Shown: piece by piece, positions 5,856 through 35,300 of the stretch
Layout of the letters: every line of letters starts with the position of its first letter
How positions within the stretch are numbered: position 1 is the first letter of the stretch
Virus record (IMG/VR): IMGVR_UViG_3300044448_000545
Location: 1 to 35,809 of that record
DNA length: 35,809 nucleotides
DNA from: a virus
Lineage: Duplodnaviria; Caudoviricetes
Reading direction: 5' to 3' (one strand)
Notes under the pieces: model-generated
Seen by the model: the letters and a program-made list of their open reading frames with translations, nothing else
Databases searched by the model: none
Told to the model about the DNA's origin: nothing
Translations under genes and position numbers: made by a program

Positions 5856-7412
5856 ATGTCAGACGCTATAGTTAAAAACCTTAACTTTGGTAAGGAAGCC
5901 CGAACCAATGTATTTAAAGGTATTGATAAATTGACACAAGCTGTTAGCTCCACACTCGGGGCTAGCGGCAAATGTGTTATACTGGAAGATAACACCGGTC
6001 AGCCAGTAATTACAAAAGACGGTGTAACAGTTGCAAACTCTATTATACTTAGAGACCCAGTAGAAAATATGGGTGCTACGCTTTTAAAGGAAGCTGCTAG
6101 AAAAACCGTCAAAGAAGCTGGCGATGGAACAACAACGGCTACGGTACTAGCGCACTCAATCTTAACAGAGGCTTACAAAGTACTAGACAAAGAAGGTTCT
6201 AGAAAAATGAAGAACGGTATAACGTCCGCTGTCGATAAGGTTATAAAACACCTTGACAAAAACTCTGTTAAAGTTTCTGGGAATATGATAGATCAAGTAG
6301 CAACAATATCTACAAACAATGACTGTGAGCTAGGCCAGATTATAGCTAATGCTTTCCGCGGTGTAGATGAAACTGGTATTGTTACAATGGAGAAAACAGT
6401 TGAAAGCAAAACTAAAGTAGATATAGTAGATGGTGTTGAATATGATAAAGGCCTTACAAATATGGCGTTTGTTACTAGTAAATCCTCTAAAACTGCTGAG
6501 CTTGAAAACCCACTGATACTTCTTGTAGAATCACCAATTGAAAGTATTAGAAAAATACAAAGCGTACTGGAGTACGTTATAAAAAATAACAAAGCATTAC
6601 TTATTGTTGCTGACTGCGAGCCTGCTGTTATATCAGCGCTAGCGATGAACAAGAACAAAGGTAATATAAAAGTAAATGTAATCAACTCACCTACGTACGG
6701 TATCAATAAAAAAGATATGTTATCTGATTTAGCCTTGCTTACTGGTGCTACAGTTATAAACGAAGATCTTGGTGATGATGTAGATTTAATCACGCCAGAT
6801 ATGCTAGGTACTTGCATTAAAACAGTTACAACTGAATTAGATACAATATTCCAAGTTAATCGTGATAACGAAGAGGTTGATGCGCTTATCGAAGAAATTA
6901 AAAAAGAATTAGTTAAGTCTACTAACGCAGCTGATATAATCAGATTAGAAAAAAGATTATCAAGACTGTCTGCAAAAGTAGCTGTTGTAAAAGTTGGTGC
7001 AAATTCAGAGATCGAGCTTAAAGAAAAAGCTGACAGGGTTGAAGATGCTATATGTGCTACAAAAGCAGCTATCAAAGAAGGTATAGTAGCAGGCGGTGGT
7101 ATCGCGCTTTTAAACGCGTCAACTGCTGTAAAACCAAAAGATAAAAGCGAAGAAGTTCTTTTAAAAGCCATACAAGCTCCGTTTAAAACTATACTTAAAA
7201 ACGCTGGCATTGAAACGTATGATATGCCTAAGGTAAAAGGCAAAGGATTAGATGTGGTTACAGGAAATATGGTAAGTATGATTAAGTCAGGTATTGTCGA
7301 TCCTTTGCTAGTTACCAAGTCTGCGCTTAGAAACGCGGCGTCAGTAGCTACTACTATTCTTTCAACAGATTGTGTAATTAATAATTTAAGGGTAGATGAA
7401 GGCGATAGGTAA
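5856..7412 (+). CDS. groEL: Phage-encoded chaperonin GroEL (Cpn60)
   Basis: Motifs ITKDGVTVA, AGDGTTTATVLA and RVEDAICATKAAIKEGIVAGGG. 518 aa, with no GGM tail. Confidence 0.97.
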   Translation: MSDAIVKNLNFGKEARTNVFKGIDKLTQAVSSTLGASGKCVILEDNTGQPVITKDGVTVANSIILRDPVENMGATLLKEAARKTVKEAGDGTTTATVLAHSILTEAYKVLDKEGSRKMKNGITSAVDKVIKHLDKNSVKVSGNMIDQVATISTNNDCELGQIIANAFRGVDETGIVTMEKTVESKTKVDIVDGVEYDKGLTNMAFVTSKSSKTAELENPLILLVESPIESIRKIQSVLEYVIKNNKALLIVADCEPAVISALAMNKNKGNIKVNVINSPTYGINKKDMLSDLALLTGATVINEDLGDDVDLITPDMLGTCIKTVTTELDTIFQVNRDNEEVDALIEEIKKELVKSTNAADIIRLEKRLSRLSAKVAVVKVGANSEIELKEKADRVEDAICATKAAIKEGIVAGGGIALLNASTAVKPKDKSEEVLLKAIQAPFKTILKNAGIETYDMPKVKGKGLDVVTGNMVSMIKSGIVDPLLVTKSALRNAASVATTILSTDCVINNLRVDEGDR

Positions 7413-7656
7413 GAACTTAATTATAAAAATACACAAAGAAGCTTCTACTAAAACAAAAGGTGGACTGCTTCTAGCTGATATGCACAGAGAAGATATACGC
7501 TATAGAAAAGCCGATGTATTAAACACTGGAAATGAAGTAGTGGGTGTTAAAGACGGTGATCAGATATATTTTGACCGTCACGCTGGGCATGGTATAGAAA
7601 TAGATAAAGAAAAGTTTCACGTTATAAAACTACAGGACGTTGTTGTAATACTATGA
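7396..7656 (+). CDS. groES: Co-chaperonin GroES (Cpn10)
   Basis: MKAIGKNLII...TKGGLLL...VKDGDQIYF...GIEIDKEKFHVIKLQDVV matches the GroES pattern. Overlaps the groEL end by 17 nt. Confidence 0.9.
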   Translation: MKAIGKNLIIKIHKEASTKTKGGLLLADMHREDIRYRKADVLNTGNEVVGVKDGDQIYFDRHAGHGIEIDKEKFHVIKLQDVVVIL

Positions 7657-10345: not shown

Positions 10346-10501
10346 ATGAAGTCTAGAGGTTTAGGAGACAGCATAGAGAAGTTTACTAAAGCTACTGGAG
10401 TAAAAACTGTAGTAGATAGAGTCGCAGAGGGTTTAAATATCCCCTGCGGCTGTTCTGCTCGTAAAGAATGGTTTAATAAAAAGTTTCCTTATAATAACTA
10501 A
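10346..10501 (+). CDS. Small phage protein with GLGD...CGC motif (not in ORF track)
   Basis: MKSRGLGDSIEKFTKATGVKTVVDRVAEGLNIPCGCSARKEWFNKKFPYNN (51 aa). Fills the gap exactly, with TAATG coupling to the next gene. Confidence 0.85.
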   Translation: MKSRGLGDSIEKFTKATGVKTVVDRVAEGLNIPCGCSARKEWFNKKFPYNN

Positions 10502-12365: not shown

Positions 12366-12593
12366 ATGGATTCTGTTATAAGAAAAATCAGCATTGGTTC
12401 TGATTATAAAAATGATGCTATGCACTACTCTGTGGGCCAACAAGTTTATGGTGGCCACGAGATTGCATATATTTTATTTGATGGTCAAGATAGTTCTTAT
12501 AATATTCATATAAAGAAAAACAACGAGGTATTGCCATGGAAGAAGTTTAATTCTAACATGGCTATATCTGTTGAGTATGATTTAGAATATTAA
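12366..12593 (+). CDS. Conserved hypothetical protein
   Basis: 75 aa (IRKISIGSDYKNDAMHYSVGQ...WKKFN...VEYDLEY). TAATG coupling to the next gene. Confidence 0.8.
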   Translation: MDSVIRKISIGSDYKNDAMHYSVGQQVYGGHEIAYILFDGQDSSYNIHIKKNNEVLPWKKFNSNMAISVEYDLEY

Positions 12594-13198
12594 TGAAAAG
12601 CGTATACGATTTTATTATAAAACCTATTGGTAAGGTTTATGATAATTCTATAGATGTAGATGGCAAAGAGCTTTTGCTAAACACTAGTATTGAAAAACAT
12701 AAGTTTGTAAATAACAAAGCTATTGTTATTTCAACGCCACTTGCTTTTGATACGCCTATAGAAGAGGGTGATGAAATTATAGTTCACCATAATATCTTTA
12801 GAAGGTATTATAATATAAAAGGTAAAGAGGTTAATAGTAGTAAATACTTTAAAGAAGATCTTTACTTTTGTCAAGTAGATCAAATATATTTATACAAAAA
12901 AATATACAAATGGTATGCGTTTGCTGATAGATGCTTTGCTATGCCACTTGAAAATAATAACGATCTAGAGCTCGATAAAGAGCAAAAGCTTATTGGTATA
13001 CTAAAGTATGGTAATAAGTCCTTAGAAGCTAAAGGAATAAACGAGGGAGATACTGTAGGCTTTACACCTAATAGTGAGTTTGAGTTTATTGTAAATGACC
13101 AGCGGCTTTATTGTATGAAATCAAATGATATTGTAATTAAGTATGAGCACCAAGAAAACCAAGTTGAATATAATCCAGGCTGGGCAAAGAGCAGTTGA
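12593..13198 (+). CDS. Tandem GroES-fold protein (second, divergent co-chaperonin-like)
   Basis: Two GroES-like halves: DFIIKP...IEEGDEIIV and DRCFAMP...INEGDTVGF...EFIVNDQRLYCMKSNDI. Confidence 0.65.
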   Translation: MKSVYDFIIKPIGKVYDNSIDVDGKELLLNTSIEKHKFVNNKAIVISTPLAFDTPIEEGDEIIVHHNIFRRYYNIKGKEVNSSKYFKEDLYFCQVDQIYLYKKIYKWYAFADRCFAMPLENNNDLELDKEQKLIGILKYGNKSLEAKGINEGDTVGFTPNSEFEFIVNDQRLYCMKSNDIVIKYEHQENQVEYNPGWAKSS

Positions 13199-32383: not shown

Positions 32384-35300
32384 ATGAACGAAGAGCAAAT
32401 TGCAGAATTAAAATCTTTGGTTGATGAGTTAACAACTCAAGGTTTATCTACAGAGCAAATACAAGCTAGTGTTGATCAACGTAAAGCTGAGTTTGCTAAT
32501 GCTGTAGAAGTTACAGACGAAATACAAGAGACTGTAACTGAGGGAAAGACAAGCGATGTTGCAACAGTGGATGCGGCTGTGACATCGGAACCGGACACAG
32601 CATCCGAGAGTACGGAATCAAAGCCGGACGATATTTTATCGGGATTAGAAGAAATTAAAGACGTACGCGAAATAGATAAACGTATTGATAAAATAACATC
32701 TACAAAAGCAACTAAATTTTTTGAAGCAGGAGAAATAAGTCCTTTAGATTCTCCAAAAAGAATAGCTCAATATAAAGAGTTAATCAATAGAAGAAATAAT
32801 ATAATAGGTGATGCTTATAAACTAGGTCAAACTCAGACTTACCAGCAAAAAGACTTTGATCCTATGAGTCCTAGTAAAAAAGTTATTGAAAGAGAAGGAG
32901 CTCCAGAAGGAGGAGCTAAACTAGCTTACGTTCCTTTTACAGTAGATGGCGAGGTAGTTGGTACAACAATGGAACCGCTTGCATTTGAAGAGGTGATAGT
33001 AACTGCTCAACAATATAAAGAGCGCGAAAGACAAATACAAAGTGAAGCTTATATTAATTTTCTAGAACAATCTGGGTTATCAACAGAACCACTATCCCGT
33101 GAAGAGTTTGAAGCTGAAAAAGAAAAAGAAGGTGATATAACAGAAATAAAAACTACGCCTTACAGAGGCTTAGATTTACTTCAATCTTTTGAAAACATAG
33201 GAGCTTCTTTATCTGGGCTTCAACAAACAGCACAAGAAAAAGAAAATTTTAGAAATCAATATGAAGATTATCTTTCTTTTATGAAAGACAAAAAAGTTGA
33301 TGTAAAGCGTGAAGTGCCGGGTTTTTTTTCTAGTAGATTTGCTGATGTTTCCAATTTATTAACACAAGTAGGTGGGACAGATGATAGAGCTCTTTTAAAT
33401 CTAGCTTATATTACTAATTCTATATCTTCTGATACTTATCGAAACGTATTTGGCGTAGAGTTAGGCGATAGATTAAAAAAAGAAGCAGTTAAAAGTCTTA
33501 GTAATATAGATAATAAAATGAATTATTTAAATTCATTAACGCTAGATACTCCTACTTTTTTAGATATTGCACCAAAAGAAAGTTTAACTAGTAATGCTTT
33601 AACGGGTTTGTCAGCTGGGCTAACAGCTTTAAGTAGTTTTGCAGCAACCGCTGCTACAGCTATACCTACAAGTGGTACGGCTATTTTTAGTGACATGGCT
33701 GCTAATAATATTAAATCTTTTAATGATGCAAAAGCAAGAAGCAAAGGTATTACAGTTGAGGAATTAGCTTTAAGAGGCGAAACAGAAGTTGTAACACCTA
33801 CTGGTTTAGCCGTTATAGGTGGTTTTTTAGAAAAAGCTGGTTTGAAAGGTGTTCAAAGAAAAATATCTGCTATGCCTCCTGGTGCTATGCAAGCTGTTTT
33901 TAATTATTTTAATTCTGGAAATAGAGAAGGTATTACAGAATATGCACAGGGTTTATTAGAAGCTTATAATTTAGCTTTAGGTGAAGGTAAATCAATAGAT
34001 GAAGCTATTGATATAGTAATCAAAGAAATGACTTCTCCAGAAAGCCTTAATAGATATTTATCGGGTTTTGCTGGTGGAGCAGGTGGTTTAGGATCTGGAA
34101 GAATAATGAAAGCTATAGGCGCTACAAGAACACCATCAGAAAACAAAAGAGTATCTAGCCTTATAAATAAATTAAACGAACTAGAAAATAGTAAGTATAG
34201 AAAAAATTTAAATGCTGATGATATTGCACAAATAAACACAGCGCAAGAGACTATAAGATTTGATTTAAGAGATATAGTACTAAATGAAGTTGATTTAGTT
34301 GGATCTTTAACAGAAGCTCAAATTCAACAAGTAGATATAGCCTCTGATTATTTAACTTCTTCTACTAGTAGAATAAACGAAATAGAAGCTAGTGATAAAT
34401 ATAGCGAGCAAGACAAAAAAAATATTATAGCTAGTATAAATCAAAAAAGACAAATAGCTAGTGATGTAATATATGACATACGTAATGAAGCGGAAAAATT
34501 AGAAGCACAAGTATTTACTATAAAAGATTTATCTAAGTTTGTTAAAGGTGTTAAAGTAGAGGAAGCTAAAGATGATGCTGAAGCTTTAAAATTTGTTGAT
34601 GAAAATAATTTAGAAATAAAAGCTTCTACGGAGCAAGGCTATATACTACAAAATCCTGAAACAGGAGAGCAGACAATAGTTATAAATAAAGAGACCGCTC
34701 AAAACCAAAAAGCTGTAAACGTAGCCGCTCATGAATTTTTACACGCTATATTATATTCTACAATAAAAAATAATCCTAAGGCAGCTACAAATCTTGGTAA
34801 ATCTCTAATGGCTGAGTTAAATAAAATAGACATAGACCAAATAGAAGATAGTGACTTTAAAAAACGTATGAAGCAATATGCTGAAAAACCTATTGACCAA
34901 CAAATGGAAGAGGCTATTACGTTGTTTTCTGATGCTTTAGTTACAGGGGATATAAATTTTAAAGAAAATATAGCTACTAGAATAGGTGATAAATTTCGTA
35001 GACTTGCTCAAAAGTTTGGTGTTAAAATAAAATTTAACAATGGTAAAGATGTATATAACTTTGTAAAAGATTATAACAAAAGTATTGAAAAAGGTGAATT
35101 ATCTATAGCTCAAGTACGGGCAGCTGCTGAAGGTGTTGAAGGTGAATTAGTTACACCAGTAACAGAACAGCGAGCTGACGAACAAATAATTAAAGAATCA
35201 AGATCTGAAGAAGCTTCTAATCGTGTTCAAGAAATATACGATCAACAAGGCGAAGCTGGTGCTTTTGATATTATAGAACAGTTTAAACCTATTACAAGTA

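Follow-up and report, generated by a model that had tools for sequence, protein, structure and literature searches.

The DNA analyzed here, referred to as the window, is a viral record of 35,809 nucleotides (Duplodnaviria; Caudoviricetes; IMG/VR record IMGVR_UViG_3300044448_000545, positions 1 to 35,809), and the element in question is a predicted -1 frameshift cassette near the start of the giant open reading frame (ORF) that closes its virion module. Family scans of this 35.8-kb record reveal groEL, terminase, portal, capsid, ring-like, and muzzle-like genes, and the last genes of the virion module, of 268, 510, and >1142 amino acids (aa), lie in an order that matches phages phi38:1, phi18:3, elemoA, and Panino. 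The cassette comprises a slippery heptamer, a spacer, a predicted pseudoknot, and a hidden -1 frame (Table 1).

The original prediction, made from the letters of the window, had placed the slippery site at codons 53–55 of the giant ORF, and the site is as described: these codons read GAG GGA AAG, and GGGAAAG is in X_XXY_YYZ phase relative to the ORF start at 32384. As was also claimed, the -1 frame has TGA immediately 5′ of the heptamer, contains no ATG (nor GTG or TTG), and stays open to its TAA; the predicted product of 91 aa consists of 55 shared and 36 new residues, with the -1 frame reading GK followed by DKRCCNSGCGCDIGTGHSIREYGIKAGRYFIGIRRN. The 9-bp stem with two G-U pairs (32554–32562 with 32579–32587) becomes 10 bp once A32563–U32578 is added, and the loop pairing that crosses it to form stem 2 can be extended by one U-G pair. 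The patch is indeed GC rich (47.9% versus 33.2% in the rest of the gene; 41% versus 20% at third codon positions), and the six codons singled out as atypical (GCG, GTG, TCG, CCG, TCC, ACG) each make up 2–9% of their synonymous family in 15 large ORFs. The identical stretch was found unbroken in one of four public DNA runs examined, possibly the sample of origin, and RNA-run contigs, which cannot reveal expression or slippage, span the cassette with heptamer and stems unchanged.

Table 1. Features of the cassette and of the genes that surround it (window coordinates)
Feature	Position	Strand	Basis or remark
Slippery heptamer G_GGA_AAG	32542..32548	+	Commonest site among relatives, 38 of 91
TGA shutting the -1 frame right before the heptamer	32539..32541	+	Sequence
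Spacer ACAAG, 5 nt	32549..32553	+	Sequence
Pseudoknot stem 1, 10 bp, two G-U	32554–32563 with 32578–32587	+	6 of 10 pairs changed on both sides, 91% of cells paired (22 chosen relatives)
Pseudoknot stem 2	GGATGC 32569–32574 with GCATCC 32600–32605	+	Both partners altered in 2 of 6 pairs; pairing in 98.5% of cells
Shared N-terminal module, 55 aa, net charge -9	32384..32548	+	Two predicted helices, about aa 3–18 and 23–45
-1 frame tail, 36 aa, basic, ends at TAA 32656–32658	32549..32658	+	Cys at 32557–32562, 32572–32574, 32578–32580
Conserved C-terminal motif YGIKAGRYFIG, -1 frame, predicted β-hairpin	32611..32643	+	Comparison and structure model
Giant ORF, >1142 aa	32384..35809, continues past window end	+	Closes a set of three genes that follows the muzzle-like gene
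Two upstream genes, 268 aa (hydrophobic Gly/Ala-rich N-terminus) and 510 aa	30023..32366	+	Gene order

Within the single genome the evidence is mixed and the cassette only moderately unusual, and the case rests on conservation across relatives. The heptamer GGGAAAG is not enriched in the window (2 found, 2.85 expected), and the fold restricted to nested pairs is ordinary and uninformative (z 0.13). The pseudoknot score ranks first among 69 in-phase heptamers, narrowly (-29.4, with the next at -29.1), and among 1000 synonymous re-codings of the frame of the giant, 23 give an equally good pseudoknot. Openness of the -1 frame over 36 codons is rarer, being found in 2 of 1000 such re-codings, and the open stretch of the cassette is the longest among 75 in-phase heptamers. 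No Rfam family matches the cassette (best E 4.6), and the matches to a loose pattern scan that combined the heptamer with half of stem 2 were set aside as mostly chance.

Among relatives, GGGAAAG is kept at all seven loci recovered by a search with the N-terminus. In 22 sequences picked for their likeness to the window, 94% of cells are paired and 8 of the 16 pairs have changed on both sides; none of 500 shuffles scores as high, and slid controls reach 22–50%. More distant loci form both stems anew, from unrelated sequence, and keep the spacing of 4–7 nt. The original prediction would have fallen had homologues carried non-slippery codons and no covarying stems; the alignment shows instead that slippery codons, the 4–7-nt spacer, and covarying stems are all kept. 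The cassette has the hallmarks of a pseudoknot-stimulated -1 programmed ribosomal frameshift: an in-phase slippery site, a covariation-supported structure 5–9 nt downstream, and a conserved alternative frame that lacks a start of its own. An RNA model of the cassette matches 16 of 18 held-out positives, none of 18 negatives, and none of six cultured relatives that carry an adenine run in place of the heptamer; this separation of positives from negatives indicates that the RNA signal and the peptide are lost together.

The hidden frame was also sought by its peptide motif. A DNA scan of IMG/VR with the motif only, blind to slip site and structure, points to an estimated ~620 stored stretches and returned 120 matches, 118 of them distinct and viral. 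In 117 of these the motif lies in the -1 frame of a long ORF, with a start codon in view 42–105 codons upstream at 112 and the start beyond the end of the stretch at five, and none is a free gene. The remaining match (L268, at 3001) is an A-run cassette with an intact motif in which the 0 frame stops 42 codons later; its giant gene appears to be broken or differently built. In a scan of cellular genomes, 97 of 120 matches are unrelated in-frame proteins. A full cassette does occur on a 10-kb contig (L369, CBDEVQ010000081.1) from the bin of a Flavobacteriales genome assembly, which hints at the host group.

The family pattern is aromatic-G-hydrophobic-x-hydrophobic-G-R/K-aromatic-F-F/I-G, as in YGIxIGRYFFG, and G25, G29, F32, and G34 do not vary over 81 rows, an outcome due in part to how the scan was built. 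Across 45 distinct loci (two others having been dropped by the motif pattern), codon entropy in the -1 frame is 0.78, 0.61, and 1.25 by position, the third being the most variable, and three glycine columns hold GG while varying in the base that is third in this frame and second in the 0-frame codon. Over the 33 motif bases in 36 sequences, the ratio of nonsynonymous to synonymous polymorphism (pN/pS) is 0.41 in the -1 frame, compared with 1.68 in the 0 frame and 1.42 in the +1 frame. Close pairs, which are not independent of one another, hold 59 changes that are silent in the -1 frame and not in the 0 frame, versus eight of the reverse kind. These loci were anchored on the motif, which favors a -1 signal; 70% of a set gathered without regard to the motif qualifies. 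A start codon (ATG, GTG, or TTG) precedes the motif in its own frame at only 3 of 46 loci, and a stop follows 3–9 codons past it. By these substitution patterns, it is the -1 frame at the motif, rather than the giant's frame, that is under protein-level selection. The original prediction had left two outcomes side by side, a device to set the stoichiometry of the giant protein and a small partner that shares its N-terminus; selection on the tail disfavors stoichiometry as the sole purpose and favors the small partner. The short protein is likely functional and not merely the by-product of a ribosome sink.

The motif-blind set was fetched through the 268-aa neighbor and comprises 80 loci, the best 80 of 123, of which 10 stop short of the giant's start and 70 are informative. 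The cassette is found in 49 of the 70 and lacking in 20; the last (L150:7584-7800) has an A_AAG site, a weak RNA-model match (E 0.036), and a C-x-C, with a decayed hairpin motif, and is a possible intermediate of loss. In a quick tree of 114 rows, which excludes 21 A-run loci whose stretches hold no marker match, negatives are nested among positives in about five clades; five changes are needed, at least three of which are forced by well-supported branches. Repeated loss is the simplest reading of this patchy absence. Neither the tail nor the 268-aa protein had any meaningful tblastn match among cultured phages.

A survey of 113 loci, the window and 112 others, reveals two routes of access to the motif. 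No long A-run is present at 92 loci, and 91 of these have a candidate slippery site: GGGAAAG at 38, AAATTTT and GGATTTT at 10 each, AGTAAAG at 7, and others. A pseudoknot that beats at least 19 of 20 shuffles is found at 82 of the 91, a pass rate that is inflated because the calls use a stacking score of our own and the best site was picked at each locus. The other 21 loci carry a run of nine or ten A (A10 at 19), and three of them pass the pseudoknot test; their path to the motif is shorter (median 8 codons versus 22), and none has two or more Cys in it. The cultured phages phi38:1, Calle_3, elemoA, and Gundel_1 have A10 at the same place; the -1 frame after it is basic and aromatic, contains Gly, and resembles the motif only loosely. 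Runs of nine or more A with no downstream stimulator, the signature of transcriptional slippage, are present in relatives and absent from the window. By analogy with Thermus dnaX, the A-run class is probably read by polymerase slippage, the alternative being ribosomal slipping on A_AAA_AAA, and comparison of the loci suggests an apparent switch between pseudoknot frameshifting and A-run slippage within one phage group.

In several cultured phages the deposited run is A9 (phi46:3, L243:21119-21450; phi13:2, L245:4119-4400; phi19:3, L246:6056-6380; phi18:3, L247:2995-3320; Panino, L208:31586-31800). With A9, the giant ORF falls in the -1 frame relative to the N-terminal module and a WFFG-containing peptide in the third frame, which leads annotation to split the gene in two. 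For Pachyviridae and Panino, an obligatory shift was judged less likely than an under-call of the homopolymer, because Gundel_1 has A10 in frame at the phi13:2 offset, Panino was sequenced by Nanopore only, and no split form occurs among the 118 IMG/VR matches. For the A9 phages, IMG/VR holds only the same four assemblies. The hidden frame of Panino (L208:31640-31860) contains two copies of a W-F-x-G half motif, and the marine loci L137, L144, L165, and L166 have extra Cys-containing inserts between C-x-C and the hairpin.

These comparisons bear on two further readings. In one, the shift serves purely as a ribosome sink, drawing down the amount of giant protein, and the short product is waste. 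Sinks of this kind have been proposed for other phage genes, such as lambda cI (accessible text of PMC5009743), and the early position and truncating outcome of the cassette would suit one; however, a nearby stop would suffice for that purpose, yet the -1 frame is kept open to a motif under purifying selection at a cost to the 0 frame, and the motif outlives a change of access mechanism. The first of these observations largely refutes the sink, which we regard as highly improbable. In the other, no recoding takes place in the window phage, and the conserved feature is an RNA or DNA element, a frame with its own non-AUG start, or a site of RNA polymerase slippage. The structure, which is real, could have a function in transcription or stability, polymerase slippage is probably the route in A-run relatives, and 16 database proteins hold module and tail in one frame. 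Yet the variation is phased by codon, the heptamer keeps phase and a constant distance to stem 1, the site is preceded by a stop with no start codon after it, and GGGAAAG is not a homopolymer run. The ten in-frame proteins that were looked up are singletons, nine of them on one contig, with frame changes at varying places, as sequence errors would be, and an absence of recoding is the least probable of the readings weighed here. The 16 proteins themselves (P0002-P0017) are 58–131 aa long and change frame at differing places; the ten examined form single-member clusters and are probably sequence errors, although they illustrate the appearance of the products.

The short product would join two parts of different character. 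The shared module, compared at 112 loci, has a median length of 49 aa, falls into 57 clusters, is sometimes doubled, and is interchangeable among relatives. A single-sequence model of the window module folds into two helices followed by a low-confidence linker, with a predicted local distance difference test score (pLDDT) of 78–88 over residues 1–40, and profiles of the module match giant-gene starts only. A 'IVQRMIDAGEPEENI' module also begins cassette-free genes of GC-rich, apparently unrelated phages (L222, L224-L229, L231, L233, L234); the presence of 'IVQRMIDAGEPEENI' there indicates that the N-terminal module is more widespread than the frameshift. The tail has a median net charge of +6 over 81 rows and, in the model of a 68% identical relative, is predicted to form a β-hairpin with strands at residues 19–28 and 31–40 (pLDDT about 71–77).

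Cysteine accounts for 14.9% of linker codons (261 of 1757) versus a background of 3.9%, and C-x-C occurs at 76 of the 91 pseudoknot-class loci versus 26 expected. A zinc finger or metallothionein-like peptide would have three or four conserved Cys/His ligands in fixed spacing; a four-ligand pattern, [CH]C-x2,3-C-x-C, is found at 19 of the 91, and such spacing is absent from all 21 A-run loci and from some pseudoknot loci. The caution in the original prediction that the Cys content could be a by-product of 0-frame codons stands in part, since re-coding of the 0-frame protein with the codon usage of the genome already gives as many Cys (mean 4.2) and Cys-free pseudoknot cassettes exist; against it, the C-x-C spacing is kept above expectation. 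From the alignments, the conserved core is the C-terminal aromatic/Gly motif and not the cysteines, which are optional. Many lineages likely have a metal site, which would be accessory.

The window capsid protein shares 36–48% identity with its counterparts in Flavobacterium elemo phages, Maribacter phage Panino, and Cellulophaga phi38:1/Calle. This similarity suggests that the window phage is a short-tailed phage of marine Bacteroidota and a relative of Pervagoviridae/Elemovirus; crassvirus membership does not follow from it. As in crassviruses and T7/P22, a muzzle-like gene (Pfam crAss_MUZ_C) is followed by three cargo-type genes (PMC10172136, in part), and a large gene at the end of the virion module, following portal, ring, and muzzle genes, is the layout of an ejection protein. 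From gene order and the crassvirus and T7/P22 precedent (same portion of PMC10172136), the giant ORF probably encodes an ejection or cargo protein, and the 268- and 510-aa genes are probable smaller ejection proteins. In phi18:3, three genes at equivalent positions are annotated as structural from tandem mass spectrometry (MS/MS), and the window giant protein would by synteny be located in the virion. The phi18:3 module ORF lacks the MS/MS note that its three neighbors carry, which weakly fits an assembly-time role for the short product.

The giant protein also contains a zincin-like HEXXH domain (aa 743–883, window 34610–35030; Pfam Peptidase_M78, E 2e-5), and one may speculate that it is a protease that trims the N-terminal module. 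Elsewhere in the window, the stretches 5856–7656 and 12593–13198 hold phage groEL (Pfam and PHROG matches) and small neighbors at the position of the groES-like genes of cultured relatives. A 341-aa antisense ORF (6293–7318) that overlies groEL is probably a by-product of codon bias. An unlisted 51-aa ORF at 10346–10501 (+) has a C-G-C motif, is common to 9 of 17 compared genomes, and has no NCBIfam match.

Together, the heptamer, the predicted pseudoknot, and the conserved hidden frame would cause some ribosomes to shift by -1, yielding a 91-residue protein that acts as a small adaptor to the giant one, a reading to which we assign a probability of roughly 0.8. Its decoding step is highly probable. 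With tRNA-Gly and tRNA-Lys on GGA-AAG, the ribosome would be stalled by the pseudoknot; the two tRNAs would re-pair on GGG-AAA, and the -1 frame would then be read for 36 new residues to TAA; in the 0 frame, the same DNA would provide merely an acidic linker. The cassette is real and conserved, and its product is very likely expressed.

Given a real product, its role as an assembly adaptor is put forward tentatively, at somewhat under even odds. Both products would bear the same N-terminal binding module, and the short one would end in a cationic aromatic β-hairpin, often after a C-x-C metal site that could dimerize it. The hairpin may grip a membrane or a hydrophobic groove of the prohead while the shared module ties the short product to the giant protein or to a common partner. 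The short product would thereby help to position the giant cargo during head assembly, with the shift rate fixing the product ratio, as lambda gpG/gpGT does for the tape measure. The logic of gpG/gpGT, the constant fusion of tail to module, and, weakly, the missing MS/MS note in phi18:3 argue for this role. A bolder proposal, held more loosely, is that a large, abundant group of Bacteroidota podoviruses hides a fourth ejection-module protein in the 5′ linker of the giant cargo gene. Overlooked by all gene callers, it would consist of a swappable targeting module and an overprinted cationic β-hairpin outside the known fold families, would load or pilot the giant by membrane anchoring, and would have been retained while its access route switched between ribosomal pseudoknot frameshifting and polymerase slippage on A10.

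The same physical features can be accommodated differently. In the main rival, which we consider unlikely, the short protein is packaged and co-ejected, and its cationic hairpin inserts into the host envelope and helps to start the entry channel. Sharing a module with the cargo protein could give it the same packaging route, the basic flanks around a hydrophobic Gly/aromatic hairpin recall membrane-active peptides, and cargo sets that differ between crassvirus lineages (PMC10172136, available portion) fit the patchy loss. The hydrophobic strands, of about six residues, would however be too short to span a bilayer, and the phi18:3 annotation, in which the neighbors and not the module ORF have MS/MS notes, speaks weakly against packaging. 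A distinctly improbable reading is that the short protein acts late at the host inner membrane, as a lysis helper or a block to superinfection, and that gene sharing couples only its timing. Its tail is small, cationic, and hydrophobic, it is dispensable in several clades, and the modules are so diverse (57 clusters among 112 loci) that the tail may be the sole active part. Yet in 118 distinct viral matches the tail is always fused to the giant's N-terminal module and never a free gene, a linkage that a role independent of assembly would not need. The assembly adaptor is the role that we prefer.

Several points weigh against the proposal of a frameshifted adaptor. The pseudoknot pass rate across the family is the inflated figure given above. 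To our knowledge, such frameshift signals are untried on ribosomes of Bacteroidota, the host group. The pLDDT of the whole tail model is 62, and the tail has no usable match in Pfam, NCBIfam, PDB sequences, a fold library, or the ESM Atlas, so that function is read from physical character only. The cassette is absent from about five clades (20 of 70 relatives), and a profile search that recovers both positive controls and 16 of 16 positive records finds the peptide nowhere else in 19 negative or decayed records, of which only five are at least 90% complete; the short product is therefore dispensable. A comparison of 11 positive with 6 negative genomes yields no gene that co-occurs with the cassette, hence no partner.

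The mechanism is known in kind: by analogy, the cassette truncates early like copA and adds a second binding part like gpG/gpGT, and it is a member of neither. In Escherichia coli copA, the signal is an A_AAG-type site with a pseudoknot, and CopA(Z) is essentially the freed N-terminal domain. As in the window, the -1 shift lies early in a long gene and yields a short product that shares its N-terminus; it is efficient and frees a functional 70-aa CopA(Z) from the 834-aa gene product (accessible portions of PMC5009743 and PMC6771820). Unlike copA, which encodes a transporter, the cassette sits in a phage structural gene and adds an overprinted domain of 36 aa under selection, whereas shifts of the copA/dnaX type add few or no new residues.

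The lambda gpG/gpGT slippery site is G_GGA_AAG, as in the window, and in both systems two products share an N-terminal part to which a -1 tail is added. In lambda, the shared N-terminal part is a binding part, the -1 tail has a second binding function, the ratio matters, and neither protein is in the virion (PMC5009743, as far as available; the same text describes G_GGA_AAG as highly shift-prone in E. coli and names it for HCTV-5 g-t). The gpG/gpGT shift occurs near the 3′ end of a small gene upstream of the tape-measure gene of long-tailed phages and extends the product, whereas the cassette occupies a site close to the 5′ end of the giant gene in a short-tailed phage, shortens the product, and includes a pseudoknot. 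Scans of 15 window proteins reveal no tail-tube or tape-measure family match, and no similarity to tail assembly chaperones was detected (no Pfam match above cut-off for module and tail, no PHROG match for the giant).

Three further systems described in the accessible part of PMC5009743 share single aspects with the cassette. The dnaX products tau and gamma arise by ribosomal shift in E. coli and by transcriptional slippage in Thermus thermophilus; a long and a short product with a switch of route across lineages resembles what is inferred here for the pseudoknot and A-run classes, but dnaX is a cellular gene and gamma ends one codon past the shift with no new domain. In α-carboxysome csoS2A/B, a truncating -1 shift likewise affects a cargo-related protein, one that is shell associated and organizes cargo and whose two forms are proposed to partition it; that shift differs in lying two-thirds into the gene and adding three residues. 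Frameshifts in phage virion genes are known from T7/T3 gp10B, phage A2, and Listeria A118/A500, and bacterial ribosomes do use pseudoknots; those virion shifts differ in making C-terminal extensions, often Ig-like domains. The word 'frameshift' is absent from the main-text portions available for PMC8776804, PMC11590407, PMC10172136, and PMC13288928 and occurs once in that of PMC7886860, on RNA polymerase genes. Literature searches, with most subscription journals out of reach, returned no description of the cassette. What appears new is the place (the 5′ linker of a podoviral cargo gene), the overprinted domain under selection, and the apparent route switch in one phage group.

Little is understood about how podoviruses set the number, packing, and order of their large ejection proteins, and seawater commonly contains phi38:1-like phages. 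Hundreds of genomes, judging from the ~620 motif-matching stretches, carry no annotation of the hidden protein. About 90 natural bacterial frameshift pseudoknots, independent in sequence, are available in the family, together with the apparent A-run switch. Cultured relatives and a public proteome that covers phi38:1-infected Cellulophaga baltica and free virions (PXD066074 / MSV000098485, named in PMC13288928) make the question testable. The hidden product also provides a single-codon handle, as a stop can be placed in the -1 frame without altering the giant protein. If true, the bolder proposal of a fourth ejection-module protein would supply a short-tailed counterpart of the gpG/gpGT rule and direct access to the question of how ejection proteins are numbered and loaded into heads.

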